A DNA stretch of 13,771 nt from an uncultured archaeon (GTDB lineage Archaea > Aenigmatarchaeota > Aenigmatarchaeia > CG10238-14). The notes below the pieces were generated by a model. That model ran no database searches. It was not told the origin of the DNA and was given only the letters and a program-made list of their open reading frames with translations. The DNA is taken from assembly GCA_964392445.1 (NCBI GenBank), contig CAYMPD010000028.1, positions 1 to 13,771 of the forward strand, read 5' to 3'. Below are positions 1 through 13,770 of this stretch, piece after piece. The stretch's first letter is position 1, and each line of letters opens with the position of its first letter. The position numbers and the translations under genes are program-made.

Positions 1-192
1 ACCAGAATGATTGCCTGTCTGACTATTGCTGGGACTCAGACGGGGATTCTGATTTGGAATGTAATTCCGGTACGACCGATGGTAACTCAACCGGTATAAT
101 GGCCTCAGAGGTCAACGACTGTTCTTCATCTGCATGTTTCTACAACGGAAGATGTTATTCTGATGGAAGTACTGAGACCATACAGGGGGAGA
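1..192 (+). repeat. Exact 192-bp direct repeat, copy 1 (runs off the left edge)
   Basis: Base-by-base identical to 2686..2877. The offset is 2685 bp (895 codons, in frame). The copies diverge at 193/2878 (gagAAccag vs gagAGcaaa). Confidence 0.97.
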
Positions 193-3100
193 ACCAGGTA
201 TGTGGCTCTGGGTATTGGGAAGGGCTGAGAACAGGTCCAGCAAAACCGATCAAGATGAATACCCACATGAACATCACCCAACAGAACTTAACCTTTGAGA
301 TAGGAATCAACGCTTCCAGCATAAGTGCGGGCGACGGCATAAAGATCAATTACACCGTAAGAAACCTGGACCCATACTGTTCTGAAAATCCTGATACAGG
401 TTACTGTTACAGGAACAAAGACAGCTACATAAACCTGACCCAGATAAGACTCTGGTTCGGTGACAATTTAACCTATTATGATTTGGATAAAGACCTTTAC
501 GGTTACGAAATAAAGAGTGGAGAATTCGACAAAACAATCCCAGACATAGATTCATCCTGCTACGACATAAGGGCAGAGTTAGTCTACATAGACGGCAATG
601 ATGGTGATGAATACAGATTCCAATCTTCCAACCTCATACAAAGAGGGACATGTCTATCCAGAAATTCAACTGACCAACCCTGTTCCCATTCCACAGAGTG
701 TGACCAGGGTTTGTACTGCCTGGACACAGATGATGACAACATCTTGGATACCTGCAAACAATCCTCAACCAGCTATGGTTACCTGTGTGAGAAAAGAGGT
801 GTTGGTACAAAGGAAAGAGTGTCCACAGATGGTGATTGCAAGTGGGCAGCACCTGCAGCACAGAACTACAGCATACCTGACGGTTTAGAATGTGAATATG
901 AAGAAGATTGTGTTAACACTTATTGCTGGGATGATGATTCAGACGGGGCAAGGGAGTGTGATTCCAACCCAACAACCGGAAGTGCATCTGGAGTAAATGC
1001 TTCAGACCAGTCCTGCCACCCATCATCCTGTTTCTATGCAGGCAGGTGTTATTCAAACGGAACAACCGTAGACTTGCATTCAGAAGGTGTTAATGAGGAA
1101 TGTATAGACGGGAAATGGCATAAAAGAGTTGCCCTTGAACTGGAAGTCCCGGATACAATAACACCAGGCTCATCGGTTGACATCAACTACACAATAAGGA
1201 ATTTATACCGGTTGTGTGAATCACCTGAGGAAACTTGTATAGAATTACCCAACCACACCTTAACCCTATCCAAACTAACCTTCCAGATAGCCGAACATAG
1301 AGTGAATGAATCCATTTCAGGAACACTGAAAGGTTTCGAGAACAAGACAGACACAATATCAGTGACTGTTCCCGTTATAAACCACACCGACTGCTTCGAT
1401 ATCAAAGGATTCCTATATTTCACAAGGGACGGTAACTCTGAAATAACCAGCTCTGATCCATACATAAGGGGAACCTGTTGGTACCAGAAAACATCAGGTT
1501 CATGTGACAAAGGACCTGAAGGTGATATAGATTACTTCTGTCTATACGACAGCCAGACAGACCCAACACCCGGAACCGTAAGTTCCTCATCCACAGATTA
1601 CGGTAACCTATGTGACCGTTCTTTGGGTACTTCTGTAGCACAGAGGGTATCAGAAATAGACGACAACTGCAGGCCAGCAAGATGGTCACTCGAAAACCAG
1701 AACATTCCCCTAAACATGAGGTGCAGGTATGATGACGATTGTATATCTGGATATTGTAGGGACTATGATGGAGACGGGAAATATGTATGTGTGAGCGGTT
1801 TAGCCCAAGAGGGAGCCATTTGTACTTTGGAAACAGAATGTGATGCAGACTTCTGCTGGGACTCCGACGGTGATGGATTAAAAGAGTGTAACTCCACACC
1901 CAATGAAGGAAACTCAACCGGTATAATGACCAGCTTCCAGTCCTGCCACCCATCAGCCTGTTATTACGACTCCAATCCCGACCTACCTTTAGAGGAAAGA
2001 TGTTACTCAGACGGTTCAACCCTTGATCTATTCTCGGATGGTGAGACAGAGACCTGTCATGACGGTAAGTGGCTGAGGAATGTAAGCCTTACATTGGAAA
2101 TACCAGATGAATTCCAACCAAACCAGGAAGTTACGGTCAATTACACCGTACATAACCTGATGCCCATGTGTGAATGGGAAGAGGGTGTTTGCCAGGAGAT
2201 AGAATCCAACATAATAACCCTGTCCAACCTTACCATCTACGTCACTGACCTTCATGTCTACGACGACACAATCTCCCATGAAATAATAGGCCATCACTCC
2301 ATCAACAATTCATTTACGTTCACAGTACCTGGCATTAACCACACCACTTGCTACGATATCAAAGGCATCCTGAAATACACCAGAGACGGTTCAACCCTTG
2401 AGACTGGGACAGATTCTGCAATAAGGGGTTCATGCAGGTACAACAAAACGTCCGGATATTGTATAAGAGGTCCTGAAGCAGAGACGGGTTACTTCTGTTC
2501 CTACGATTCCCAAACCAATCCAACAAACGGGACCATTAACACATCAACAGATGATTACGGTTATGTCTGTGACCGTCAATTAAGTACGGGTGTGATACAG
2601 AGGGTGACAGAGAATGGTGGTGAGTGCCTTGAAGCAAGGACTTCATCCAAACACAAGAACATCCCTGATAGCATGGATTGTGCTTACCAGAATGATTGCC
2701 TGTCTGACTATTGCTGGGACTCAGACGGGGATTCTGATTTGGAATGTAATTCCGGTACGACCGATGGTAACTCAACCGGTATAATGGCCTCAGAGGTCAA
2801 CGACTGTTCTTCATCTGCATGTTTCTACAACGGAAGATGTTATTCTGATGGAAGTACTGAGACCATACAGGGGGAGAGCAAAATATGTTCTAATGGATTT
2901 TGGTCATTTGAAATAATAGGTGACATAATAGCAGAATACAGAGACATAACCTATGAGTTCAAAGATATGGAACTTAATGATACACATATAAATACGAACG
3001 TTACACTTACAAATAATGAAGGATCAAGTTTAACTCTATTTGACACTTATTTTTACCTTGGAGATACTATTCAAGAAAAGAGAGAAATAGATATTTCAAT

Positions 3101-5537
3101 TGATTCTGGATCTTCTGACACAAGATCATTTTCTATAGAAAAACCTACAGAAACCCCACCAACTTATTATATATTCCATGTGGAGAGTTTAATATATATA
3201 AATGATGAAGGATTTTGGGCTACGTCTGACTTTGGAACTTATGATGCTGTTAAAGATCAGATAAAAGCTGAACTCACTCCCCCATTATGGAACGATACAG
3301 ATGGTTATCTAGGGGGTAACGCCAGTAAAATAGATCAGGGTGATTCTGTTCTACTCTATGGTATGGGTTATGATGAGACAGCTCTAGATTGGGCTGTACT
3401 TTCGACTAATGAGAGCAGTAGCTGGGAGAATAAAACATCTGATTACTCCTCACCACAGGACATGTCAGATGCATCAGAAACATGGATTTGGTCAAACTTC
3501 ACTTGGATCAATTCATCTGTTCCAAAGGGAACAATAGTTGGATGGAGAATCTTTTACAACGATACTAGCGGCAATGAGAACGGAACTGATATTCAATCTT
3601 TTAAAATCAATCAGATTCCCCAATGGTCTAATAAAATAACGTCTCCATCTTCACCAGCAGATTACTCACCCGGACAGTCCTACCAGCTCAATATCACTTG
3701 GGTAAGTGATATAGGATTAGATACAGTTAAAATAGAACACAATCTTACAGGTTCAACATCACCACATAATGACTCATTTACTGGTAACGAAGATGGAGAA
3801 TACTATTTCAATGTTTCTGACTTAGCAGCGGGTACTTATGTCTGGAGATCATTTGCTAATGATACTAATGGGGATGAAAATGTCACTGATCAGTGGAGTT
3901 ATGTTGTTAGCAAGGGTTCTCCCAATCCAGTTAAATTATATTTGAACGGAACAGAGGGCTCGAACAAAACGATCACTTATCCAGAAAATGCGAATGCTAC
4001 TGGTATTGCTCTTTACTCGAATGCCGGGACCGCTCATTTATTTAGAGATGGAATTGAAGTGGATTCTGGAGCTGATAAAGTTAACGAGACTATACTTTTG
4101 GGAAATGGTACCTATGCTTACAAAGTCAATATAACTGGTAATCATAACTACAGTTCTAACTCCACTGGGTTGACCTTCTATTTGACCGTCCACAAGGGAT
4201 CACCATCTCTTTCAGTAGATTTTTCCCCCTCCTCATTAGAGACCTATGGAACCGAAACAATAACTAGTTGTTCCATCGAAGAAGGTGATTCTACAGCTAC
4301 ATTAACGTTATTTAGGAACAGTTCACAGGTCAAACAGGGTTCTGGTAATCAGTTTGAACAAATAACTCTTGGTGCAGGTGTTTGGAATTATTCTTGTAAT
4401 TACAGCGAGTCAGAGAATTATACCTCTTCTTCAACTTTAGATAATTATTTAACTATTAGAAAAGCCTCCTCTACAGTTAATCTTCTTTTGAATGGGACAG
4501 ATTCGGATAGAACATATAATTTAAATGAAACCATAAACAGTTCAGTACAATTAACCACACCATCAGGAACAAATGAAGAGCTGTTTTTAGATACTAATAT
4601 TACAGGATGGACAACAGATTCCGGAACGACCCCCTTTGAAAACATGACTTCTATTTCATCAGTTGGGAAGTATAATTTCACGGGTTCTTGGGGTGGGAAT
4701 GAGAACTACAGCAGTGGCTATGAAACTCATTATGTAACAATCCAAGAGCCCGCATATCTTGAAGTATCACTGATAACACCTCCGCCCACGTTAAGTGTAA
4801 CTCGGTATACCAATTTCACAGTAAATGCGACAGTTCATTGTAGAGATGCTAACTGTGGTCATGTAGAAGCAATAGTTCAATATAATCTTTCCTCAGTAGA
4901 TCCAGATACACCTGTAAACACAACTACCGGAGATACACCACTCTACGTTCAAAGTCTCCCACAAGACGCTTTGAAATCATGTCCAAATAATCCTTTAGAT
5001 CAGGATGAATTCTGTAATTTAACTTGGGTATTAAATGCCACAGGAGCGGAAAATTCTGAATGGAAAGTGGGGACATTATTTAATACATCCAAATCAGGAA
5101 TAGATGATAATCATACTGACAATTCAACAATAACCATTATCCATTGCTCATCTGATATAACTCTCTGGACTCCAGCGACAATAGACTTTGGAACTATAAA
5201 TCCAAATACAAATGAGAATGAAGCAACAGGTAATTCAGGGAATGATTACAACATAACCATAAATGAAGGGAGTTGTAAGAGTAATTTATGGATAAAGGGG
5301 GAAGATTTGACAAATACAACTTATGGTACCTCAATTAATGTGGGTAATTTAACTTGGGGTAATTCCACCAACAATTATAATACATCCTATAATATGGCAG
5401 CCGAATATGCCTCTGTCAACAAAAGCGTTGCTGAAAGAAAGAAAGTCACAACTTATTACTGGTTAAATGTCCCGCCGATTTTAGCAGGTAAATACACTGG
5501 TAATGTTACTATTTTCGCTAATGAGACTGGAAGTTAA
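3..5537 (+). CDS. Giant modular surface protein / putative tip adhesin, 5'-truncated (at least 1844 aa): Cys-rich Ca-loop/Ig repeats, Big_3-like repeats, C-terminal pilin-like domain
   Basis: The frame is open from base 3 (QNDCLSDYCWDSDGDSDLEC...), so the TTG at 54 in the ORF track is an internal Leu. The true start and signal peptide lie left of the window. Repeated C-x5-C-x4/5-C and DxDxDG motifs, beta-rich Ig-like segments, very dense N-x-S/T sequons, no C-terminal TM helix. Confidence 0.85.
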   Translation, partial: QNDCLSDYCWDSDGDSDLECNSGTTDGNSTGIMASEVNDCSSSACFYNGRCYSDGSTETIQGENQVCGSGYWEGLRTGPAKPIKMNTHMNITQQNLTFEIGINASSISAGDGIKINYTVRNLDPYCSENPDTGYCYRNKDSYINLTQIRLWFGDNLTYYDLDKDLYGYEIKSGEFDKTIPDIDSSCYDIRAELVYIDGNDGDEYRFQSSNLIQRGTCLSRNSTDQPCSHSTECDQGLYCLDTDDDNILDTCKQSSTSYGYLCEKRGVGTKERVSTDGDCKWAAPAAQNYSIPDGLECEYEEDCVNTYCWDDDSDGARECDSNPTTGSASGVNASDQSCHPSSCFYAGRCYSNGTTVDLHSEGVNEECIDGKWHKRVALELEVPDTITPGSSVDINYTIRNLYRLCESPEETCIELPNHTLTLSKLTFQIAEHRVNESISGTLKGFENKTDTISVTVPVINHTDCFDIKGFLYFTRDGNSEITSSDPYIRGTCWYQKTSGSCDKGPEGDIDYFCLYDSQTDPTPGTVSSSSTDYGNLCDRSLGTSVAQRVSEIDDNCRPARWSLENQNIPLNMRCRYDDDCISGYCRDYDGDGKYVCVSGLAQEGAICTLETECDADFCWDSDGDGLKECNSTPNEGNSTGIMTSFQSCHPSACYYDSNPDLPLEERCYSDGSTLDLFSDGETETCHDGKWLRNVSLTLEIPDEFQPNQEVTVNYTVHNLMPMCEWEEGVCQEIESNIITLSNLTIYVTDLHVYDDTISHEIIGHHSINNSFTFTVPGINHTTCYDIKGILKYTRDGSTLETGTDSAIRGSCRYNKTSGYCIRGPEAETGYFCSYDSQTNPTNGTINTSTDDYGYVCDRQLSTGVIQRVTENGGECLEARTSSKHKNIPDSMDCAYQNDCLSDYCWDSDGDSDLECNSGTTDGNSTGIMASEVNDCSSSACFYNGRCYSDGSTETIQGESKICSNGFWSFEIIGDIIAEYRDITYEFKDMELNDTHINTNVTLTNNEGSSLTLFDTYFYLGDTIQEKREIDISIDSGSSDTRSFSIEKPTETPPTYYIFHVESLIYINDEGFWATSDFGTYDAVKDQIKAELTPPLWNDTDGYLGGNASKIDQGDSVLLYGMGYDETALDWAVLSTNESSSWENKTSDYSSPQDMSDASETWIWSNFTWINSSVPKGTIVGWRIFYNDTSGNENGTDIQSFKINQIPQWSNKITSPSSPADYSPGQSYQLNITWVSDIGLDTVKIEHNLTGSTSPHNDSFTGNEDGEYYFNVSDLAAGTYVWRSFANDTNGDENVTDQWSYVVSKGSPNPVKLYLNGTEGSNKTITYPENANATGIALYSNAGTAHLFRDGIEVDSGADKVNETILLGNGTYAYKVNITGNHNYSSNSTGLTFYLTVHKGSPSLSVDFSPSSLETYGTETITSCSIEEGDSTATLTLFRNSSQVKQGSGNQFEQITLGAGVWNYSCNYSESENYTSSSTLDNYLTIRKASSTVNLLLNGTDSDRTYNLNETINSSVQLTTPSGTNEELFLDTNITGWTTDSGTTPFENMTSISSVGKYNFTGSWGGNENYSSGYETHYVTIQEPAYLEVSLITPPPTLSVTRYTNFTVNATVHCRDANCGHVEAIVQYNLSSVDPDTPVNTTTGDTPLYVQSLPQDALKSCPNNPLDQDEFCNLTWVLNATGAENSEWKVGTLFNTSKSGIDDNHTDNSTITIIHCSSDITLWTPATIDFGTINPNTNENEATGNSGNDYNITINEGSCKSNLWIKGEDLTNTTYGTSINVGNLTWGNSTNNYNTSYNMAAEYASVNKSVAERKKVTTYYWLNVPPILAGKYTGNVTIFANETGS
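60..2904 (+). repeat. Tandem ~290-310-aa protein modules: units 60-956, 957-1886, 1887-2744 and a partial unit from 2745
   Basis: Each unit runs C-(N/D)S..G..(S/T)G..S...C..S.C(F/Y)Y..RCYS(D/N)G(S/T)T, then an Ig-like domain with (I/V)NYT(V/I)(R/H)NL, then RG(T/S)C, YG.(L/V)C.R....(E/Q)RV, and ends N.(S/N)IP....C....DC...YC.D.D.D. Confidence 0.9.
2686..2877 (+). repeat. Exact 192-bp direct repeat, copy 2
   Basis: Identical to 1..192; encodes QNDCLSDYCWDSDGDSDLECNSGTTDGNSTGIMASEVNDCSSSACFYNGRCYSDGSTETIQGE. Confidence 0.97.
3912..4742 (+). repeat. Three tandem ~90-aa bacterial Ig-like (Big_3-like) repeats
   Basis: The units start KGSPNP (3912), KGSPSL (4194) and KASSTV (4461). They end GNHNYSS / ESENYTS / GNENYSS followed by Y(L/V)T(V/I), matching the G-x-x-N-Y pattern of Big_3-type domains. 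Confidence 0.65.
5118..5534 (+). other. C-terminal pilin/WxL-like beta-sandwich domain of the giant protein
   Basis: Begins DNSTITIIHCSSDITLWTPATIDFGTINP and ends YYWLNVPPILAGKYTGNVTIFA. Both ends align with the termini of the mature 7009..7917 protein. Confidence 0.6.
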
Positions 5538-5555
5538 AAAAATAACTGTGCAGAG

Positions 5556-5571
5556 TTTTATACATATAAAA
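5556..5571 (+). promoter_or_regulatory. Candidate TATA box / inverted repeat TTTTATA-CA-TATAAAA upstream of the 5595 gene
   Basis: 7-bp-arm inverted repeat. TATAAAA lies about 24-30 nt before the ATG with no SD, as expected for a leaderless archaeal transcript. The AT-rich context lowers specificity. Confidence 0.4.
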
Positions 5572-5594
5572 TCATAATTTTTAAATAGTTTGTT

Positions 5595-6239
5595 ATGAGA
5601 GAAATGTTAACTTTAGTCACAATAATTCTTTTAATACCTTTAGTCTACTCTTTCAATTTTGGGACAGTACCTAAAAATAATTACGAAAAAATTCAACAAG
5701 GTCAAAGTACTCACTACACAATCTTATTTTGGAATCTTGGTCAGTCATCTTATCCTGTAAGTGTAGAAATGTTGACAGAACTACCCGGTTGGGATATAAT
5801 AGTAAGACCCCAGAATTTCATTTTAAAACCCACATCCACAGCTAAGCCACCTTATGGGGATGGTGAATATATAGAAATACCGGAGAGAGGTATAGTTGAA
5901 GTGGAAACATTAAGGGTTTTTGTAAAAACTCCCAATTATGTAGAACCTGGGACATATGAACTAGTTTTAGTTGCGAGAGCAGGGGATCTAACTGATCAAG
6001 TATCAGTTCTTCAGGAAAGAGAATTTAAGTTAAAATTGGAGGTAGAGAAAAATCCCACAGTTTTTGAAAGAACCTACGAATCATTAAAATTGACGGGTAA
6101 AAAGGTGGTGGAAAGAAGTAAAGAGGTAAAGAATACTGCTACAGGTATGGTAACTAGCACAAATTTTAGCCCTTTACTTGTTTTCATAGGAGGTTTAATT
6201 CTTATTTTATTGATTATTTTATTAGTTGTGGTTAAATAA
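5595..6239 (+). CDS. Exported single Ig-fold (NEW3/DUF916-like) protein with C-terminal TM anchor, 214 aa
   Basis: Signal peptide MREMLTLVTIILLIPLVYS; motif LRVFVKTPNYVEPGTYELVLVA; TGMVT motif followed by hydrophobic LLVFIGGLILILLIILLVVVK at the C-terminus. Confidence 0.75.
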   Translation: MREMLTLVTIILLIPLVYSFNFGTVPKNNYEKIQQGQSTHYTILFWNLGQSSYPVSVEMLTELPGWDIIVRPQNFILKPTSTAKPPYGDGEYIEIPERGIVEVETLRVFVKTPNYVEPGTYELVLVARAGDLTDQVSVLQEREFKLKLEVEKNPTVFERTYESLKLTGKKVVERSKEVKNTATGMVTSTNFSPLLVFIGGLILILLIILLVVVK

Positions 6240-6300
6240 AAAGAATTTAAGATGTAACTAATTAACATTTATTATACAAAACTATTTAGTCTAACTTTTA

Positions 6301-6312
6301 AACAATATTGTT
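6301..6312. promoter_or_regulatory. Perfect 12-bp palindrome AACAATATTGTT abutting the PqqD-family ATG; possible operator
   Basis: The palindrome is seen directly and ends at the base before ATG 6313. Its function is inferred only. Confidence 0.35.
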
Positions 6313-6594
6313 ATGGAGTATGATATACTTTCTAAAAAACCTTTAAAATCTCCTAATCTTAAGATTATTGATCATGTAGGAATACTTTATGGTACAGTAA
6401 ACGGTGAAAAACTCTGGGAAGTGGACAAAGTAGCTTGGGAAGTTCTAAAAATGTGCGATGGAGATAAAACCGTGGATCAAATAATATGGTCTGTCTCAAA
6501 AAAATTCCAGATAGAAATGGAAGAAGTTAAACCTATAGTGGTAGCAATATTCAAGGAACTGAAAAGAATAGATTTTATAGAATATAAAGACTAG
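6313..6594 (+). CDS. PqqD-family (RRE-fold) protein, 93 aa
   Basis: Hallmark W-x-x-L-x-x-CDG-x-KTV-x-QI segment (AWEVLKMCDGDKTVDQII), then the amphipathic helix VKPIVVAIFKELKRIDFI; size typical of a stand-alone PqqD. Confidence 0.85.
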   Translation: MEYDILSKKPLKSPNLKIIDHVGILYGTVNGEKLWEVDKVAWEVLKMCDGDKTVDQIIWSVSKKFQIEMEEVKPIVVAIFKELKRIDFIEYKD

Positions 6595-6845
6595 TCCATT
6601 TTACTTTTAATTTTATCAAGAACATCCTTTTCTTTTACCATATTAACAAATCTTTCTTTGGGATAGCAGAGTTTTGCCACACCTACTTTTCTTTGGTGCA
6701 CTTTTCCCTCTCCTATTAATTCATGAATATATTTTGTAGCTGTAATTCTACTCATATCTACCATTTCTGATATTTTTTGAATTGTTAATCCTTCAGGATG
6801 ACTTTTGACAGCCTCTAAGATTTTTTCTTTTTGTCCATTCTCTAT
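6591..6845 (-). CDS. Winged helix-turn-helix DNA-binding protein, 84 aa, apparent ATA start; absent from the ORF track
   Basis: Manual translation: IENGQKEKILEAVKSHPEGLTIQKISEMVDMSRITATKYIHELIGEGKVHQRKVGVAKLCYPKERFVNMVKEKDVLDKIKSKMD*. This is a classic wHTH (GLT..I...., SR.T..KY...L...GKV, wing KVG.AKL). An in-frame TAA immediately precedes ATA, and SD-like GGGGT lies 7 nt upstream. Confidence 0.85.
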   Translation of the reverse strand: MENGQKEKILEAVKSHPEGLTIQKISEMVDMSRITATKYIHELIGEGKVHQRKVGVAKLCYPKERFVNMVKEKDVLDKIKSKMD

Positions 6846-6921
6846 TTAATCTACCCCATTTAAATACTATGTCTATTTTATAATATTTAGTAAGTAATTT
6901 TATTAATATATTATGGTTAAC

Positions 6922-6937
6922 AGTAATATTTAAATAT
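6922..6937 (+). promoter_or_regulatory. Candidate BRE (AGTAAT) plus TATA box (TTTAAATA) for the 7009 operon, within the palindrome ATATTTAAATAT
   Basis: Matches the archaeal BRE RNWAAW followed by TTTAWATA; predicted TSS about 6958-6963. It lies in the divergent intergenic region 6846..7008. Confidence 0.5.
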
Positions 6938-6996
6938 AACATATCTCTATAATTTATGCATAAGTTTAATATGGAAAAGAACCAAAACTATTAGTA

Positions 6997-7002
6997 GGAG
7001 GT
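6997..7002 (+). promoter_or_regulatory. Strong Shine-Dalgarno GGAGGT
   Basis: GGAGGTaaataa-ATG(7009): a consensus SD 6 nt before the start and the best SD in the window. Confidence 0.8.
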
Positions 7003-7008
7003 AAATAA

Positions 7009-7917
7009 ATGAAAATTCGATTGGAGTTCGCATTTTTGATCTTTTTTATAGGAATTTTGGCCTTTTTATCACCAAATTTTGTCTTATCAGCTACAGTTTC
7101 TGACAACGCTACGGTAGATGTTACAATATCTGCTGTTACTGAGATTACCCTAAATACATCGACATTATCTTGGGGTGCTGCTACGCCAGGATCTAACACT
7201 TCATCTATAGAAGTAACAGTAACAAACACAGGATCTACTCAGGTAAATAATATTTATTCTCATGTGGACACAATCGACGTAGAAAGTAGTAACCCTTGGG
7301 ATTCGTCAGGGACCGCGAGTGGCTGGTCGGCTGCAACATTCTTAGATGTTGGTAATGGGACAGTAGCTTCCGATCCAAGTTATTACTATGTTGGTCATGT
7401 AGAGTGGAATAAAAGTGATGACACAGATGCTTCAGGTTATACATTAAACTCATCTGGTACAGGATGGAAATTATCTTATGGTAGACTTTGGTTAGATGGA
7501 ACTGATGCAAGTGATTTCTACTATTGGCAATTGGTAAATGGTAGTGATGGAACATGTAAGTCTGCTGATACTGTTTTTAAAGTACAACAAACTAGAGATA
7601 GTAAAAATGTTGATGGAGGTACAGAAGCTGATGCAGAAGCTCAGAGTGGTGATTGGGCGACTTGGACTTTAGCTTCAGGAGTTGGATCAGAATATTGTAT
7701 AGCGACTTATACTGATTGCACAAAGTTTGTGTTGCATAGATACGACTATAACACGACATTTCCAACTTGTTCAAATAGAGAATATATAATAGATGGGGGA
7801 CCAATGAGTCCGAGTGATTACATAACCCTATCATTAAGAGCAAGAGTAGAGGCAGGTCATATAGAAGGAGCTGCAAGTACTGGTAATCTAAGGATTTATG
7901 CAAGTTCAGTAGCATAA
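7009..7917 (+). CDS. Secreted beta-rich protein, candidate major fimbrial subunit, 302 aa
   Basis: Sec-type signal peptide (~27 aa); mature N-terminal strand ATVSDNATVDVTISAVTEITL, then LSWG..TPG and V-T-N-T-G; 4 Cys; ends TGNLRIYA with no TM anchor. First gene of the operon, with the strongest SD. Confidence 0.7.
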   Translation: MKIRLEFAFLIFFIGILAFLSPNFVLSATVSDNATVDVTISAVTEITLNTSTLSWGAATPGSNTSSIEVTVTNTGSTQVNNIYSHVDTIDVESSNPWDSSGTASGWSAATFLDVGNGTVASDPSYYYVGHVEWNKSDDTDASGYTLNSSGTGWKLSYGRLWLDGTDASDFYYWQLVNGSDGTCKSADTVFKVQQTRDSKNVDGGTEADAEAQSGDWATWTLASGVGSEYCIATYTDCTKFVLHRYDYNTTFPTCSNREYIIDGGPMSPSDYITLSLRARVEAGHIEGAASTGNLRIYASSVA

Positions 7918-7957: not shown

Positions 7958-8923
7958 ATGAAATTATCTAATAGATTATTTTTCAGTTTTTTAATATCAA
8001 GTATAGTTCTTCTACCTCTAGTCAGCAGTGTATCAGTAGGTATATCCCCGGGGCATTTAAATCTGGGAGAGATTGAACCTGGTGATTCTAAAATTGCTAG
8101 ATTTTATTTAGTTACTTCCTCTAAAGAGAAGATGATAGTTCACCTTAGTTCTACAGAAGGAAACATGAACATTTATGATAGAGAGGAATACAGAGATTTG
8201 AGAAAGAATCATTCTGAGGAAGACATTAGTTCTTGGGTAGAATTCATCAATAATCCCACGGAATTATTACCTCCAAGTCAGGTTTCAGCAAAGATGAAAG
8301 AGGGATTGAATGTTGAACAACTAAGAGAAGTTAAATTCGTTTTAAGGATACCAGAGGATGCCGAACCTGGTTATCATACTGGGATTATATATATGGATCC
8401 TAAAGTAACAAAAGATGAGGAAGCAAATGTTTTTGTGAAATCTATCGTACCTCTAACTTATATTTTCAAAGTTAAAGGGAAAGCGATTAGAAGTGGAAAT
8501 ATAATAGACATAATTCACAAAACTAATAGTTTTGGTAGGAAGTGGGTACAAGTTTTTTATGAAAATAATGGAACAGTAACAACTTATGTAAATCGAGGAA
8601 GTATTATCTTTTATAATGAGAAGGGTAGAATAATTTTTGATAAAAAAACAGACGCTAGATTTGTAAAACCCGGAGAAATAAGAGAATTCAATACTTTTAT
8701 AAGACCTGGAGAGTTAGAAGATGGCGAATATGATGTTAAGGTCACTTTTGATTATACCACAGACTCTGTAACAAGAGATTTGAGACTCGATCTAGGTACA
8801 ATCTCTGAGTCACCAACTGGAAAAGTTACCGAAGAGATTCAGGGGAGGTGGGAAATACCATGGAAAATAATAATAGTAATTCTTATTATAATTTTAATAA
8901 CCTATATTATTTACAAGGGATGA
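7958..8923 (+). CDS. Two-domain exported protein with C-terminal TM anchor, DUF916/DUF3324 (WxL-interacting protein)-like, 321 aa
   Basis: Signal peptide; mature start SVGISPGHLNLGEIEPG; VKFVLRIPEDAEPGYHTGII; second domain with YENNGTV and LEDGEYDVKVTFDY; TM KIIIVILIIILITYII then YKG. The architecture parallels WxLIP/CscA-type proteins. Confidence 0.65.
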   Translation: MKLSNRLFFSFLISSIVLLPLVSSVSVGISPGHLNLGEIEPGDSKIARFYLVTSSKEKMIVHLSSTEGNMNIYDREEYRDLRKNHSEEDISSWVEFINNPTELLPPSQVSAKMKEGLNVEQLREVKFVLRIPEDAEPGYHTGIIYMDPKVTKDEEANVFVKSIVPLTYIFKVKGKAIRSGNIIDIIHKTNSFGRKWVQVFYENNGTVTTYVNRGSIIFYNEKGRIIFDKKTDARFVKPGEIREFNTFIRPGELEDGEYDVKVTFDYTTDSVTRDLRLDLGTISESPTGKVTEEIQGRWEIPWKIIIVILIIILITYIIYKG

Positions 8924-9463: not shown

Positions 9464-10243
9464 ATTAAATTACTTTATTTTACTCTTATTTTCATATTAG
9501 TTCTTGTTTCATGTTCTTATTCTCTCAAAGTTTTTCTAAACTTAGCTGAGGTATTAGAAGGAAGTTTATCACAAATAAATTATAAAAATTTAATAAAAAA
9601 TGAGATTTTTAAGTTAAGTTTCAGATTTCTTAATTCTGGAAGTGTAGGATATAAGTTGAGAGGAAGGTTGGATATATTTGACCAAGAGAGCAATTGGATT
9701 TTTACAGCTTGGACTCAAGAGGTTGATTTTTATCCTGGAACAGATAAGATTCTTAGCATCTATTACTATCCTCTTAATATTACTGGAAATTTTAATGGTA
9801 GATTAAGAGTGTATTATGGTAATGAAATTCTTGAAGACTTTTCTATAAGATTCAGAGTTGAGTCTCCAATAAGACCAAAAGAAATTGTCAATATTTCTAA
9901 TATAAAAGTTTACGATAATGTAATAGTAATGGATATAAAATCTAATAAAAATTTAACTAATGTTCTTATTGTCCCATCAAACTATCCCTTGGGTTGGATT
10001 TTTGAACAGAAAAAAATTCATGAACTTAAAGCTAATGAAATCGAACGTATATCTATTGATTATGAACCCACTCTTTGGATACCAGAAAGAAATGTTAGTT
10101 TTTATATAGTTACAGAAGATGGTAAGTATTTCGGAAGTAAAACCTTCACCTTAGAAAAAGAGAGTGGCTTAGAGAGATTTCTATATTCAACTAATAAGTG
10201 GTTAGAGAATTTTCTGTCGAAAATTTATAATCCCAAAAACTAA
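9464..10243 (+). CDS. Exported two-Ig-domain protein, 259 aa, apparent ATT start (the ORF track truncates it at TTG 9656)
   Basis: The frame is open from 9464: (M)KLLYFTLIFILVLVSCSYSLKVF..., a signal peptide. SD GAGGTG at 9451..9456 lies 7 nt before ATT. F-L-N-S-G-S-V Ig-type motif; amphipathic C-terminus. Confidence 0.75.
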   Translation: MKLLYFTLIFILVLVSCSYSLKVFLNLAEVLEGSLSQINYKNLIKNEIFKLSFRFLNSGSVGYKLRGRLDIFDQESNWIFTAWTQEVDFYPGTDKILSIYYYPLNITGNFNGRLRVYYGNEILEDFSIRFRVESPIRPKEIVNISNIKVYDNVIVMDIKSNKNLTNVLIVPSNYPLGWIFEQKKIHELKANEIERISIDYEPTLWIPERNVSFYIVTEDGKYFGSKTFTLEKESGLERFLYSTNKWLENFLSKIYNPKN

Positions 10244-10254
10244 AAACTATACAT

Positions 10255-11004
10255 ATGTATTCAAGGATAATTGGTGTGATTTCGGGGAAAGGTGGTGTGG
10301 GAAAAACAACCACTGTAATTAATCTTTCTGCGGCTTTAAATCAAATGAACAAGAATGTTATAGCACTTGATGCTGATGTCAAAATGTCAGGACTTGGCCT
10401 ACAGTTGGGAATGTATTATTTTCCTGTTACTCTAAACGATGTTCTCAAAAATACCAAGAATCTTTACCAAGCAATGTATATCCATTCTTCTGGTTTGAGA
10501 ATAATTCCAGCATCACTATGTCTCAGGGAATGTAATCTATCTAATTTTGAAAAGATCTTAAATAACCCTCTCTTAGAAAACAACATGATTTTGGTTGATG
10601 GGCCACCTGGTTTGGAAGAAAATGCAATATCAGTTATGAAAGCTTGTCAAAGAACTTTAATAGTTACAGAACCTGAATTACCTGCGATTTCAGATGTTAT
10701 GAAAATAATAAAACTGAGCAAAGAAAGAGAAATTAAACCCTTAGGGATAATAATTAACAAGTATAGAAAAGGAAAAAATCAGATAACCAAAAACGAGATT
10801 CAATCCACCTGTAATCTTCCAATTATTGGAGTTATTCCTGAAGATAAAGATGTTAAAAAAAGTATTTTTCAAAGAAAACCTGTTGTATTTTCGAGTCCAT
10901 ATTCACCCGCTTCAATAGCTTATAAGAAAATCGCTGCTAGATTGATTGGACAGGAGTATGAAGATGATAGGAATTTATTGAAAAGGTTTTTGTCAAGGTT
11001 TTGA
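10255..11004 (+). CDS. minD: Archaeal MinD-family (ParA/MinD) ATPase, 249 aa
   Basis: Deviant Walker A GKGGVGKTT (10285..), DAD switch I, DGPPG switch II, IPED..V and SPAS motifs, C-terminal amphipathic membrane-targeting-like helix LLKRFLSRF. Confidence 0.92.
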   Translation: MYSRIIGVISGKGGVGKTTTVINLSAALNQMNKNVIALDADVKMSGLGLQLGMYYFPVTLNDVLKNTKNLYQAMYIHSSGLRIIPASLCLRECNLSNFEKILNNPLLENNMILVDGPPGLEENAISVMKACQRTLIVTEPELPAISDVMKIIKLSKEREIKPLGIIINKYRKGKNQITKNEIQSTCNLPIIGVIPEDKDVKKSIFQRKPVVFSSPYSPASIAYKKIAARLIGQEYEDDRNLLKRFLSRF

Positions 11005-11005
11005 T

Positions 11006-13390
11006 ATGAGGAAATTATTGTTATCACTAACATTTTTGGTAATTTTAGCTAGTATTTCAGAGGCAAAACCAGTAATTTCTAATTTAACAGTAGACCCGAC
11101 TAGTTTATGGTTGGGTGAAAGTGCGACTATATCTTTGAACTGTATAGATGATAATGAAAACAACACAATAATCAAGACTTATCTAAACATTTCAGGACCT
11201 GATATTTTTATCTCTGATTGGGATATGGAAGTAATTCAGGGAAACAAATACTCATTGACAATCGATAATTCTTATCTTTATAAGACTGGAGACTATGAAG
11301 TTAATGTTTACTGTGAAAATGTTGCAGGTGATACTGAGACTGACAAGGTAACTTTCAGAATATCCAATCTTATAAATGAAATCAATGAAATTTCGCCTGA
11401 CCCAGCTTATCTAGGTGATCAACTGGAAATAGATGTTTTTGTCAAGAAAGATGACATTAAACTTAATTCTGGTGTCAACTTTACTGTGGAAATAGGAGAT
11501 TATAAGAAAACCTTCAGTCAAGATCCACCACCTCTTTATGATGGAGGGCGAGGGTGGATATTAAAGATAGATATTCCGGATTCTATTGGGGTATATGATT
11601 TAGTGGTTCAGTCAAAGTATGATAGGGCTCAAGCGACGGTACAGGATCAAATAGAAATCAAGCAACCTCTTCAGTTTGACTTGGTTAATATAGATAAAAA
11701 ATATCTTAAAGACAGTGAGAATATAACTTTAACATTCCAGAATTCTTATAAAGGGGAGTTATTTGACCTTTCTAAAAATAATCTTAAAATATGGATCGAC
11801 AATACCGATTGTGAGATATTAGAAACATCCAGAACAGGGAGTTATTCTTATGTGAAGATAAAAGTACCTAATCTTTCTCCAGGTGAATACGATCTTAGAA
11901 TAAGACTAACTTATGAAGATTTAGATACGAAGAGTACCAATTACTTCGTCAAAGAAATCAAAGAAAAAGTTAATTATATTGTCACGGTTTCAGGGGATAT
12001 AATAGATGCTGATGATAATCCTGTGAAGACATCAATTGATTTCAAGAATAGTAGGGTGAACAAAAAAATTTATACAGATGGAGAGGGACATTATTCTGCA
12101 GAAATACCTATAGGGGATTATGAGATTAAATTAGATTTCCCAGGATCAACTATAATATTAACAGGAGTCGATATTGGAGATTTTGAAGATCCTATAAGAT
12201 ATGATGAAGTATCTTCTGGCATTAATATAGAAGGTATAGGTGTCGTAGAGATTTTTGTCTATGAATTTGCTTTGGATTTTGAAGAAGCTTATATTGAAAT
12301 GGAGTATGATGATAGTAAAATACCAGATGAAAATAGGATTTCTCTTTATAGATGCGAGAGTTGGAATTTTGGGAGAAGAGAATGTAATAGTGAATGGAAT
12401 AAAATTAGCGCTAATGCCGATGATATCAGAAATTATGTTAAACTAAATACAACTACTCTTTCAACTTTCCTTGTAGGTTATAAAAAGGAGATGTTAGTTG
12501 ATGCTAATATTGAGAAGGAACAATATTATCTTAACGATATAATAAAAATTCTTGGTATAGTTGAGGACGAGGAACAAAGAGCAGTTAGTGGAGCAGAAAT
12601 AAAAGGAAGAATCGAAGGTACTAATATAGAGTTTAAAACTGAGTCTGATGATGGGGGAGTTTTTTCAAAAGAGTTCCAAGGACCAAACAAAGAAGGAATT
12701 TATAATATTACCCTTACAGCTGATAAATCTCCTTATGGAAAGGTAAATCAAACAATAAATTTGGAAGTGGTCAGAAGTAAAAAACTTACATTGACAGTTC
12801 CTAGTAGCATAAAAGTAAGGAAAGGGGAAAACAAAACTTCAGAATTCCTTATTAACAATATTGGTCAAACAGATTTTCAGAATTTAGTTCTTTCGATAGA
12901 GGGAATACCTGATTACTATAATATTATAGATGGAGAAATATCTGAGCTTAAAACTGGGGAAAAAAAGATCGTGCCGGTTATCCTCCAAATTCCCAAAGGA
13001 GCTAGAATAGAAACTTATTCTGGTAAGGCGAGAGTAGACTATGATAATGTAAGCTTAGAAGAAAAATTTCTTTTAAATATTTTAGAAATGGAGGAAAATC
13101 AAACTACTGGGGAAGTACAAGGCGATGATCAAAAAGAACCAGAATTTAGTTTACCTTCTGCTAAAATTGTTATACCTAGTTTTTCCATAGAGACAATTTT
13201 AATTTCTATATTCGGTGTTTTATCAGTGGGGAGTGCTGCTTGGTTCAGAAGGAAAAAAAATATACCAGATGAAGAGAGAAAGGATGTTAAAAATTTACTT
13301 TTAGATATTAAGAGAGAGATAGAAAGAGAACATACAGATTCTAAGAAAAAATCTAATAAAAGGAAAGAGCAAATTAATTATGCTAGTTGA
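11006..13390 (+). CDS. Large multi-Ig-domain membrane-anchored surface protein, 794 aa
   Basis: Signal peptide ending ISEA. Several Ig-like domains, including two carboxypeptidase-regulatory-like domains (VSGDIIDADDNPV...YTDGEGHY; GIVEDEEQRAVSGA...ESDDGGVF), a PGF-pre-PGF-like segment (YDDSKI...LYRC..W.....C..EW...TLSTFLVG) and a NEW3-like domain. TM ILISIFGVLSVGSAAWF, then RRKK and a charged cytoplasmic tail. Confidence 0.8.
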   Translation: MRKLLLSLTFLVILASISEAKPVISNLTVDPTSLWLGESATISLNCIDDNENNTIIKTYLNISGPDIFISDWDMEVIQGNKYSLTIDNSYLYKTGDYEVNVYCENVAGDTETDKVTFRISNLINEINEISPDPAYLGDQLEIDVFVKKDDIKLNSGVNFTVEIGDYKKTFSQDPPPLYDGGRGWILKIDIPDSIGVYDLVVQSKYDRAQATVQDQIEIKQPLQFDLVNIDKKYLKDSENITLTFQNSYKGELFDLSKNNLKIWIDNTDCEILETSRTGSYSYVKIKVPNLSPGEYDLRIRLTYEDLDTKSTNYFVKEIKEKVNYIVTVSGDIIDADDNPVKTSIDFKNSRVNKKIYTDGEGHYSAEIPIGDYEIKLDFPGSTIILTGVDIGDFEDPIRYDEVSSGINIEGIGVVEIFVYEFALDFEEAYIEMEYDDSKIPDENRISLYRCESWNFGRRECNSEWNKISANADDIRNYVKLNTTTLSTFLVGYKKEMLVDANIEKEQYYLNDIIKILGIVEDEEQRAVSGAEIKGRIEGTNIEFKTESDDGGVFSKEFQGPNKEGIYNITLTADKSPYGKVNQTINLEVVRSKKLTLTVPSSIKVRKGENKTSEFLINNIGQTDFQNLVLSIEGIPDYYNIIDGEISELKTGEKKIVPVILQIPKGARIETYSGKARVDYDNVSLEEKFLLNILEMEENQTTGEVQGDDQKEPEFSLPSAKIVIPSFSIETILISIFGVLSVGSAAWFRRKKNIPDEERKDVKNLLLDIKREIEREHTDSKKKSNKRKEQINYAS

Positions 13391-13770
13391 TGAGAAAAAA
13401 ACTTTATTCTAGTAATCCCAATTATTTCTTGAAATACATGGTTTCAATTAAAACTATCTTGATATTAAATATAATTCTCCTATGTTTAGCTTTAATTTAC
13501 TATTTTAGAGTTGAAATAACGGGCTTTGTCTCCGATGTTGCGACTGTTTCTTTGAGTATAGGTGGTGCAGAGGTTAGATTAACAATCTATAATGAAAAAT
13601 CAAAATACTGTCCAAATGAAAGTGCTACTATAGCTAATATAATTCAAAATACGGGGATATTAGATACTTCTGGAAATCTTTCAACCACTATCAGTTCTCC
13701 TGATGGTGAGGTTATTCTTTCAGATAATTGGAATAATATTGATTTACCTGTTGACGAAACAAAAGAATTC
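13390..13770 (+). CDS. Exported Ig-fold protein with N-terminal TM segment, 3'-truncated; absent from the ORF track
   Basis: ATG at 13390 overlaps the upstream TGA (TGATG coupling); an alternative in-frame ATG is at 13438. Translation MRKKLYSSNPNYFLKYMVSIKTILILNIILLCLALIYYFRVEITGFVSDVATVSLSIGG...IQNTG..., open to the window end. Confidence 0.8.
   Translation, partial: MRKKLYSSNPNYFLKYMVSIKTILILNIILLCLALIYYFRVEITGFVSDVATVSLSIGGAEVRLTIYNEKSKYCPNESATIANIIQNTGILDTSGNLSTTISSPDGEVILSDNWNNIDLPVDETKEF

Follow-up and report, generated by a model that had tools for sequence, protein, structure and literature searches.

How does an archaeal cell hold at its surface a secreted protein of at least 1844 amino acids (aa) that carries no membrane anchor of its own? 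The question is raised by a 13,771-nucleotide (nt) stretch of DNA from an uncultured archaeon of the Aenigmatarchaeia (lineage CG10238-14; contig CAYMPD010000028.1 of GenBank assembly GCA_964392445.1), which we refer to as the window and which is the whole 13.8-kb contig of a source genome of 1.2 Mb that is 95% complete. Archaea of the DPANN group are ultrasmall cells, for the most part uncultured, and a large number of them live attached to other cells. We find that the giant protein ends in a conserved domain, hereafter the tail domain, whose family is related to that of a 302-aa secreted protein encoded in the same window, and that an N-terminal strand of the 302-aa protein is predicted to dock into a groove of the tail. 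This is probably a strand-swapped surface fiber for mounting a giant adhesin, a type hitherto reported from bacteria alone. The features on which the argument turns are the following.

3..5537, + strand: giant secreted glycoprotein, candidate distal adhesin, from the list of open reading frames (ORFs) and their translations; at least 1844 aa, with its 5′ end open at the contig edge.
5091..5534, + strand: tail domain of 148 residues (giant residues 1697 to 1844; alignment A3), a candidate pilin-type acceptor or docking domain.
5109..5141, + strand: conserved N-terminal segment of the tail domain, N-H-T-D-N-S-T-I-T-I-I, which lines up with the small protein's donor strand.
5163..5189, + strand: strand L-W-T-P-A-T-I-D-F, one wall of the predicted groove, with F33 98% conserved.
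5496..5519, + strand: last strand of the giant, TGNVTIFA, the other predicted groove wall, with Y135 100% and G137 92% conserved.
7009..7917, + strand: 302-aa secreted protein (P0002; alignments A1 and A5), a candidate fiber subunit or adaptor.
7093..7137, + strand: predicted donor strand, residues 29 to 43 of the 302-aa protein, directly after the signal peptide.
7363..7770, + strand: central insert of ~135 residues (approximately 119 to 254), absent from the giant tail; boundaries approximate.
7879..7902, + strand: last strand of the 302-aa protein, TGNLRIYA, counterpart of the last strand of the giant; family motif G-T-L-T-[IV]-x-A.

The original prediction had described the giant as a protein without a transmembrane anchor, likely mounted through its C-terminal domain and displaying a passenger of more than 1700 aa on a filament. 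The missing anchor is borne out: the part of the giant that lies in the window contains no transmembrane-like stretch, and in complete homologues (1851 to 3502 aa) the sole hydrophobic segment is a signal-like one at the N-terminus. The passenger is indeed large: within the window the tail domain is preceded by at least 1696 residues, and the 5′ end of the ORF is open. The giant also carries 69 cysteines and 79 N-glycosylation sequons, as expected for an exposed archaeal surface protein. A direct repeat of 218 nt at 95% identity lies within the giant gene (1-218 and 2686-2903); its spacing of 2685 nt corresponds to 895 codons, in frame, and the first copy touches the contig edge, so that the repeat probably broke the assembly and the giant gene continues upstream.

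The tail domain is widespread and strictly terminal. A phmmer search with the last 145 residues of the giant against a database of 1.84 billion cluster representatives found it in 239 representatives at E ≤ 1e-3, and in 145 of 145 full-length matches it ended 0 to 8 residues before the C-terminus, in host proteins whose length ranged from 81 to 3502 aa. This is the architecture of an adhesin closed by a constant domain behind a variable payload. Within a survey of 201 genomes of the class, in which related genomes are not independent and to whose counts no statistic is attached, the tail domain occurred in 67, or about a third. Matches of 150 to 260 aa in the phmmer search, which looked like stand-alone tail domains, turned out to be gene fragments that start inside the preceding immunoglobulin-like (Ig-like) domain and were discarded as evidence; true stand-alone relatives of the tail came from the class survey. 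Some ORFs of extreme length in related genomes are closed by a tail-domain match, namely those of 12,864 aa (G145, with the match located at C1:101959-102402), 6215 aa (G100), 4826 aa (G011), and 4301 aa (G108).

The N-terminus of the 302-aa protein is signal-like, no other transmembrane segment follows, and its family was found in 56 of the 201 genomes, including a 53%-identical homologue in a metagenome-assembled genome (MAG) of a Candidatus Aenigmatarchaeota archaeon (G017) that belongs to the same genus as the genome of the window. The homology between this protein and the giant tail had been argued from two pairs of signatures, which lie exactly in place: DNSTITIIHCSSDITLWTPATIDFGTINP at 5118 (giant residue 1706) pairs with DNATVDVTISAVTEITLNTSTLSWGAATP at 7102 (residue 32 of the 302-aa protein), and TGNVTIFA at 5496-5519, followed by five residues and the stop, pairs with TGNLRIYA at 7879-7902, followed by four residues and the stop. 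In the 302-aa family, the first of these expands to the motif [ST]-D-[TN]-[VA]-T-[IV]-D-[VI]-x-[VI], straight after the signal peptide, with alternating hydrophobic residues conserved at positions 34, 36, 38, and 40 (68 sequences), and in the giant tail to N-x-T-x-N-[AS]-T-[IV]-x-I, which is 83 to 97% conserved (N7 97%, T9 97%, N11 83%, T13 83%, I16 93%; 144 sequences). The second expands to G-T-L-T-[IV]-x-A in the 302-aa family and to G-[TN]-[IVL]-T-[IV] in the giant tail. Because these motifs are conserved across both families, the two signatures represent the first and the last strand of the domain.

Profile comparisons connect the two families. We aligned 144 tail domains (A3), 4 close members of the 302-aa family (A1), and 68 members of the same family (A5), together with a set of 15 small secreted proteins of ~180 to 215 aa (A4) that had emerged as weak tail-domain matches in the class survey. 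With hhalign, the small proteins of A4 matched the tail domains at 99.7% probability (E 1.8e-25) and the 302-aa family at 90 to 94% (E 2e-7 to 2e-6), and thus bridge the two. The direct comparison of A3 with A1 gave 69% (P 4.4e-5), and in the comparisons with A1 and A5 the two N-terminal halves matched at P 4e-5 to 2e-3. When the tail was compared with the C-terminal half of A5, the value was 18% (P 1.3e-3), and C-terminal pieces by themselves (A3 95-148 against A5 150-302 or 240-302) reached 46 to 61% (P 2e-4 to 8e-5); without the N-terminal half of A5, the best match consisted of the last two strands in order, tail 110-145 against residues 263-300. Once the central insert was removed from A5, the alignment with A3 ran end to end (positions 7-147 of 148) at 86 to 90%, with a score of 39 to 42. 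Controls scored far lower: 60 column shuffles of the insert-removed A5 core against A3 gave 12 ± 2 with a maximum of 18.6, 100 column shuffles of the full A1 and A5 gave 13 ± 2 with maxima of 20 to 23, reversed alignments gave 15 to 22, and three Ig-like domains from further upstream in the same giants gave 7 to 8 against A5. The alignments of A3 with A1 and A5 always adopted the N-terminal register that had originally been proposed. The proposed homology is thus upheld at the profile level, by the alignment with the insert removed and by the bridging family; the profile alignment that had been suggested as a check is significant only at the level of families. With moderate confidence, we regard the 302-aa protein as a tail-type domain that would carry an inserted subdomain of ~135 residues.

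A model of the two proteins together suggests how they would join. We folded the tail domain (148 aa) with residues 29-302 of the 302-aa protein in ESMFold2, with deep alignments supplied. Three runs yielded interaction prediction scores from aligned errors (ipSAE) of 0.79, 0.80, and 0.79, compared with 0.00 to 0.02 for three unrelated-partner controls (best 0.02). The runs shared at least 98% of their contacts, and the predicted local distance difference test (pLDDT) was 83 to 85 for the partner and 87 to 88 for the tail chain. For orientation, the ipSAE mark is reached by 58 of 80 solved complexes and by 2 of 110 mismatched pairs, counts that are only rough with custom alignments. The interface consists mainly of residues 29-43 of the 302-aa protein against tail residues 20-39 and 127-145. 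Its closest contacts (tail/302-aa: 141/32, 140/33, 139/34, 138/35-36) place the donor strand in an antiparallel orientation to the giant's last strand, while tail strand 25-33 lies parallel to it (25 touches 32, 31 touches 35-37, and 32 touches 36 and 38), with an expected error of 1.0 to 1.3 Å between tail residues 25-33 and residues 32-38 of the 302-aa protein. The complex modeling that had been suggested as a probe for strand exchange thus places residues 29-43 between tail strands 25-33 and 137-145, at an ipSAE of 0.79 against 0.02. In silico, the donor strand lies antiparallel to its acceptor's C-terminal strand, and this predicted geometry is that of donor-strand exchange between subunits in WxL and chaperone-usher pili (bioRxiv 10.64898/2026.10.17.759780).

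Two further proteins of the window may bear on assembly.

5595..6239, + strand: 214-aa protein comprising a signal peptide, a beta-sandwich, and a transmembrane helix at the C-terminus; possibly a second membrane-anchored helper.
7958..8923, + strand: 321-aa protein comprising a signal peptide, two beta-rich domains, and a transmembrane helix at the C-terminus; candidate membrane-anchored chaperone or assembly partner.

The 321-aa protein has transmembrane-like windows at residues 3 and 296. Its family was found in 56 of the 201 genomes; in 50 of them the 302-aa family is present too, usually encoded right beside it. In terms of protein language-model features, it lies nearest to clusters of WxLIP (DUF916/DUF3324) proteins (0.93; 213 of 256 features), followed in second and third place by clusters from Minisyncoccota, a phylum of the candidate phyla radiation (CPR). 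The 214-aa gene lies directly 3′ of the giant gene, as does a homologue after the giant in a related locus on a 487-kb contig of another MAG (L005), and its similarity to the 321-aa family is weak (18.9%). Sequons are dense in the giant (4.3 per 100 aa) and the 302-aa protein (2.6) and sparse in the 214-aa and 321-aa proteins (0.5 to 0.6), a contrast that fits exposed fiber parts on the one hand and membrane-proximal helpers on the other.

The tail and 302-aa families also travel together. Both were found in 49 genomes; another 7 have just the 302-aa family and 18 just the tail. In 32 of the 49 the two genes lay within 21 kb on one contig, most of the others being fragmented assemblies. The tail-only genomes largely carry A4-type small proteins beside their giants; these proteins are encoded directly downstream of giant genes, in sister lineages that mostly have no 302-aa family. 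In L005, the order is giant, 207 aa, 394 aa, an inverted 302-aa homologue, a helix-turn-helix (HTH) gene, and PqqD onward, continuing with genes for 318, 168, and 253 aa, MinD, and 794 aa. Linkage between giant and subunit is common, not obligatory. In the loci L024 to L040, one or two tandem genes for secreted tail homologues of ~200 aa follow the giant (e.g., L024:1538-2149:- and L024:2206-2829:-), and most of these ~200-aa proteins show an [ILV]-T-G-[AS] motif past the N-terminal hydrophobic segment and a cysteine at the C-terminal end, which may mark a distinct site of processing or linkage.

On balance, and with moderate confidence, we favor a reading in which the giant tail is a pilin-type, incomplete Ig-like domain and the two proteins form a donor-strand fiber with the giant as its distal adhesin. 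The computation supports the conservation and terminal position of the domain, the similarity of the families, their linkage, and a predicted interface that passes its controls. By virtue of their signal peptides, both proteins would be exported by the Sec route. Residues 29-43 of the 302-aa protein, its amphipathic N-terminal strand, would then enter the groove of the tail between its early and last strands, in donor-strand complementation, such that the giant would hang noncovalently from the 302-aa protein as a distal, acceptor-only element. Further 302-aa copies might join in the same manner to yield a thin fiber, and the membrane-anchored 321-aa protein, possibly with the 214-aa protein, could hold subunits ready for exchange, much like ElrE or PamC/PamD. 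Computational support attaches to the joint between the giant tail and the 302-aa protein, and the later steps are drawn by analogy with ElrE/ElrD and PamC/PamD and from the features of the 321-aa protein. We infer the polymerization of the 302-aa protein, the tip position of the giant, a chaperone role, and the adhesion to a host or a surface.

Several observations weigh against this fiber model, and part of them would be expected if the resemblance were a generic one between beta-sandwiches, with the tail acting as a surface-anchoring or glycan/S-layer module unrelated to the 302-aa protein and the modeled interface being an artifact of strand augmentation. Pairwise BLASTP was not significant (with E=4.5 over the N-terminal stretch and E=1.3 over the C-terminal stretch), and neither protein matched the other in a six-frame search of their own genome at E ≤ 10, so that the likeness is not knowable from the two sequences alone. 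Unmodified, the deeper A5 aligned with A3 at only 14 to 28% (P 6e-4 to 2e-3), and the 86 to 90% depends on an excision whose limits were chosen from local alignments, where three choices agree. In part, moreover, the hairpin motif at the N-terminus is a generic one, since the 321-aa family, which scores ~35 over 20 to 33 columns against A5, matches it about equally well. Neither protein has a match in Pfam or NCBIfam or among PDB sequences, and the AlphaFold2 monomers were poor (pLDDT 53 for the 302-aa protein from 4 sequences and 45 for the tail from 11); a wide VIA-align search with the poor model gave Z values of at most 7.5, a range in which matches are common. The calibration of the complex score is rough, and the score expresses the confidence of the model and is not a measurement. 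Also on this side, a genome of the same genus carries a 21.5-kb cassette contig without an adjacent giant, the tail domain lying on another contig. We nevertheless consider a merely generic resemblance quite improbable: two separate, collinear alignments were found, one for each end of the domain; the end-to-end score lies far above both the shuffles and real upstream Ig-like domains; the bridging family connects the two sides at 99.7% and 90%; unrelated partners remained at 0.00 to 0.02 where the pair reached 0.79; and the families co-occur, in linkage, in 49 genomes.

The extent of the assembly and the place of the giant in it allow two other readings. The 302-aa protein could act as a single adaptor, like FimG or ElrC, that joins the giant tail to a membrane-anchored partner (the 321-aa or 214-aa protein, or the product of an ORF at 13387 described below), in a short display complex with one or two strand-complemented joints and no polymer. 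The sole interaction modeled, that of the giant tail with the small protein, agrees with such an adaptor, as do the three membrane-anchored proteins of the cassette and the single copy of the 302-aa gene in this genome; several relatives have two or three tandem copies. Yet by homology the small protein possesses both a donor strand and a groove-forming last strand, as a self-polymerizing subunit needs, and the equivalent small proteins of the closest analogues, ElrD and PamA/B, form long polymers, for which reason we hold the short complex to be unlikely. Very improbable, in our estimate, is a giant that is built into the fiber, with a tail that would accept one strand and donate its own N-x-T-x-N-x-T-[IV]-x-I segment, giving internal or multiple adhesins or giant-giant links. 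That segment, conserved at 83 to 97%, aligns with the donor strand of the small family, the hhalign runs keep one register for it, and an adhesin of E. faecium modeled at an internal position offers a precedent (bioRxiv 10.64898/2026.10.17.759780). Its retention counts against an acceptor-only tip adhesin, which would not need it. In the precedent, however, the domain used for attachment lies at the N-terminus and its donor strand is free, whereas more than 1690 residues precede the segment here, which hence has no free end; it moreover lies outside the predicted interface and may be a linker strand or a glycosylation site.

The fiber model finds its nearest parallels among bacterial pili. In gene clusters for WxL proteins, a small WxL protein is encoded together with a large one that bears its WxL domain at the C-terminus and with a membrane protein of the DUF916/DUF3324 type (PMC10599100), and the Elr pilus of Enterococcus faecalis was described in October 2026 to assemble by chaperone-guided donor-strand exchange (bioRxiv 10.64898/2026.10.17.759780). 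[quoted passage not shown] The differences are equally clear. The WxL/Elr system is reported as confined to Bacillota (bioRxiv 10.64898/2026.10.17.759780), whereas the host here is an archaeon of the DPANN type; peptidoglycan is absent, and a Pfam scan of the ten window proteins returned no sortase family, no search for the LPxTG motif itself having been made; the Pfam models for WxL and WxLIP are unmatched, and there is no conserved dual Trp-x-Leu motif; the subunit has an insert of ~135 residues and is heavily prone to N-glycosylation; and the cassette adds PqqD-like, HTH, and MinD-type genes. The comparison of the giant with large WxL proteins that the original prediction had drawn thus stands for the architecture and fails for family membership, given the absence of PF13731 and of a conserved dual W-x-L.

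The Pam pili, whose pilins are reported to be exclusive to CPR bacteria (PMC13278184), share with the present locus a host that is an ultrasmall cell of the episymbiont type with a single membrane, and with the model proposed here an acceptor-only tip subunit and a membrane anchor that donates its N-terminal strand, and the Pam chaperones, which have a PapD fold, end in a C-terminal transmembrane helix, as the candidate helpers here do. Pam pilins have two domains with the donor strand in the linker and a truncated C-terminal Ig-like domain, and their tip, PamT, is a small single domain and not a giant adhesin. The sequences here showed no relation to them, and the profile searches of the PDB, in a copy that may lack the Pam structures, returned no pilin of any kind. 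Chaperone-usher pili (FimH/FimG; PapD/FimC) similarly combine a binding part with a C-terminal pilin domain whose groove is filled antiparallel by the next subunit; here, by contrast, outer membrane and usher are both lacking, the candidate helpers sit anchored in the membrane, and the passenger exceeds 1690 residues where FimH has a single lectin domain. Among archaea, filaments of the TasA superfamily, which include the threads (S. acidocaldarius 0406), the bundling pili AbpA, the cannulae CanX, and Tat-dependent pili, likewise consist of beta-sandwich subunits exported by Sec or Tat and joined by an N-terminal donor strand (PMC9715654, PMC12518558, PMC12337348). In these accounts, cannulae form as homopolymers without a chaperone, and homologues of AbpA, CanX, and the threads occur mainly in Thermoproteota (PMC9715654, PMC12518558, PMC12337348); the abstracts consulted on the other filaments mention no giant adhesin that shares the subunit domain. 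Full-text literature searches found no paper on a system of this kind in DPANN archaea.

Searches by sequence family placed the two proteins in none of these groups. Scans of the window proteins and of family members against Pfam and NCBIfam left the giant tail and the 302-aa, 214-aa, and 321-aa proteins unmatched, and PDB sequence searches with the two proteins and with profiles A3, A5, and A6 returned no meaningful match. PF13731 (WxL) found nothing in the whole genome at E ≤ 10, with a Lactococcus lactis control positive, and WxL was not matched among 144 tail domains, 68 small proteins, and 15 bridge proteins at E ≤ 0.1 to 1. Trp-x-Leu is absent from the giant tail and from 131 of the 144 tail domains, and two or more occur in only 4 of the 68 members of the small family. 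The three W-x-L of the 302-aa protein itself, considered as a candidate dual motif, are not conserved (in 1, 22, and 1 of the 68) and were dismissed as chance. PF06030 does not match the 321-aa gene, and 30 members of its family gave no WxLIP or PapD match in Pfam and no chaperone match in the PDB. No Usher, PapD, or Fimbrial Pfam family was found among the ten window proteins or the family alignments, Peptidase_M73 was hit by just 1 of the 68 small-family members (E 0.23), and none of the PDB chains of TasA, AbpA, cannula, or thread subunits was matched at E ≤ 10 with profiles A3 or A5. Paralogues of the giant or the 302-aa protein were not found in their own genome.

Structure searches with the poor 302-aa model are to be read with the same reserve as its low pLDDT. 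Foldseek against the PDB returned nothing at E ≤ 0.001, and the shape search of the Atlas gave template modeling scores of 0.25 to 0.39 by query, with one Fimbrial cluster at 0.59 by row. Matches at Z 5.4 to 6.8 included subunits of TasA, cannula, FimA, CS17/CS20, AbpA, Tafi, and thread filaments, as well as one WxLIP. Among these, the TasA-superfamily folds matched the low-confidence model at Z 6.8 (8AUR, 141 residues aligned), 6.7 (9H8B), 6.1 (7UEG), 5.5 (9P0A), and 5.5 (7PNB), while FimA, the FimH pilin domain, PapE/F/H, Caf1, CS17, and CS20 lay at Z 5.4 to 6.6, values of a common kind, on a model with a pLDDT of 53.

A conserved socket domain and a small strand-donating subunit would provide a concrete and testable attachment apparatus for these cells. 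Chaperone-type donor-strand assembly is known to date from Gram-negative chaperone-usher pili and, through preprints of 2026, from the WxL/Elr pili of Bacillota (bioRxiv 10.64898/2026.10.17.759780) and the Pam pili of CPR bacteria (PMC13278184); if the fiber model is true, it extends into Archaea. In practice, the tail domain offers a good sequence probe with which to find the adhesins that these genomes encode, and the interface between strand and groove is a defined target for binding and mutation tests. A bolder and tentative conjecture, against which we lean, is that a chaperone-assisted donor-strand pilus of DPANN archaea, sharing ancestry with the WxL and Pam systems and tipped by giant glycoproteins (with ORFs of up to 12,864 aa in the class), might be the main device by which these cells hold their hosts, with the tail as a universal socket for payloads.

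The genes discussed are all encoded on the + strand, in the order giant ORF, 214 aa, PqqD-like, 302 aa, 321 aa, 178 aa, 195 aa, MinD, 794 aa, and a 3′-truncated ORF. Those that have not yet been described are the following.

6313-6594, + strand: PqqD-like (RRE-type) protein of 93 aa (Pfam E 7.5e-8), between the genes of the giant and the 302-aa subunit.
9656-10243, + strand: 195-aa protein, with TTG as the listed start.
10255-11004, + strand: archaeal-type MinD ATPase (TIGR01969, 223 bits).
11006-13390, + strand: 794-aa protein with a CarboxypepD_reg domain.
13387-13770, + strand: ORF leaving the 3′ end of the contig, with an N-terminal transmembrane segment and a donor-like strand at 13531-13560.

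A small minus-strand HTH gene adjoins the PqqD-like gene, and the pair is kept in two related loci (L004 and L005); no radical S-adenosylmethionine enzyme or peptide-maturation partner for the PqqD-like protein is visible within the window. The products of the 214-aa, 178-aa, 195-aa, 794-aa, and 13387 genes show no convincing relation to the tail domain or to the small-protein family. Hhalign relates the 195-aa product to domain two of the 321-aa protein (92.6%, residues 3-65 against 214-278), and since its homologues in L004 and L005 have 30 to 65 extra N-terminal residues, the true start may here lie upstream of the listed TTG. The MinD and 794-aa genes are part of the conserved cassette in L005, and L004 keeps the 794-aa homologue with no MinD between its neighbors. 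The 13387 product consists of a transmembrane segment, then E-I-T-G-F-V, and then S-D-V-A-T-V-S-L-S-I, the last stretch resembling the donor strand of the 302-aa protein. In a comparison with pilin families, hhalign was not significant for this product; by analogy with PamR or ElrB, it could serve as the anchor in the membrane and donate the last strand. The L004 homologue has 685 aa.

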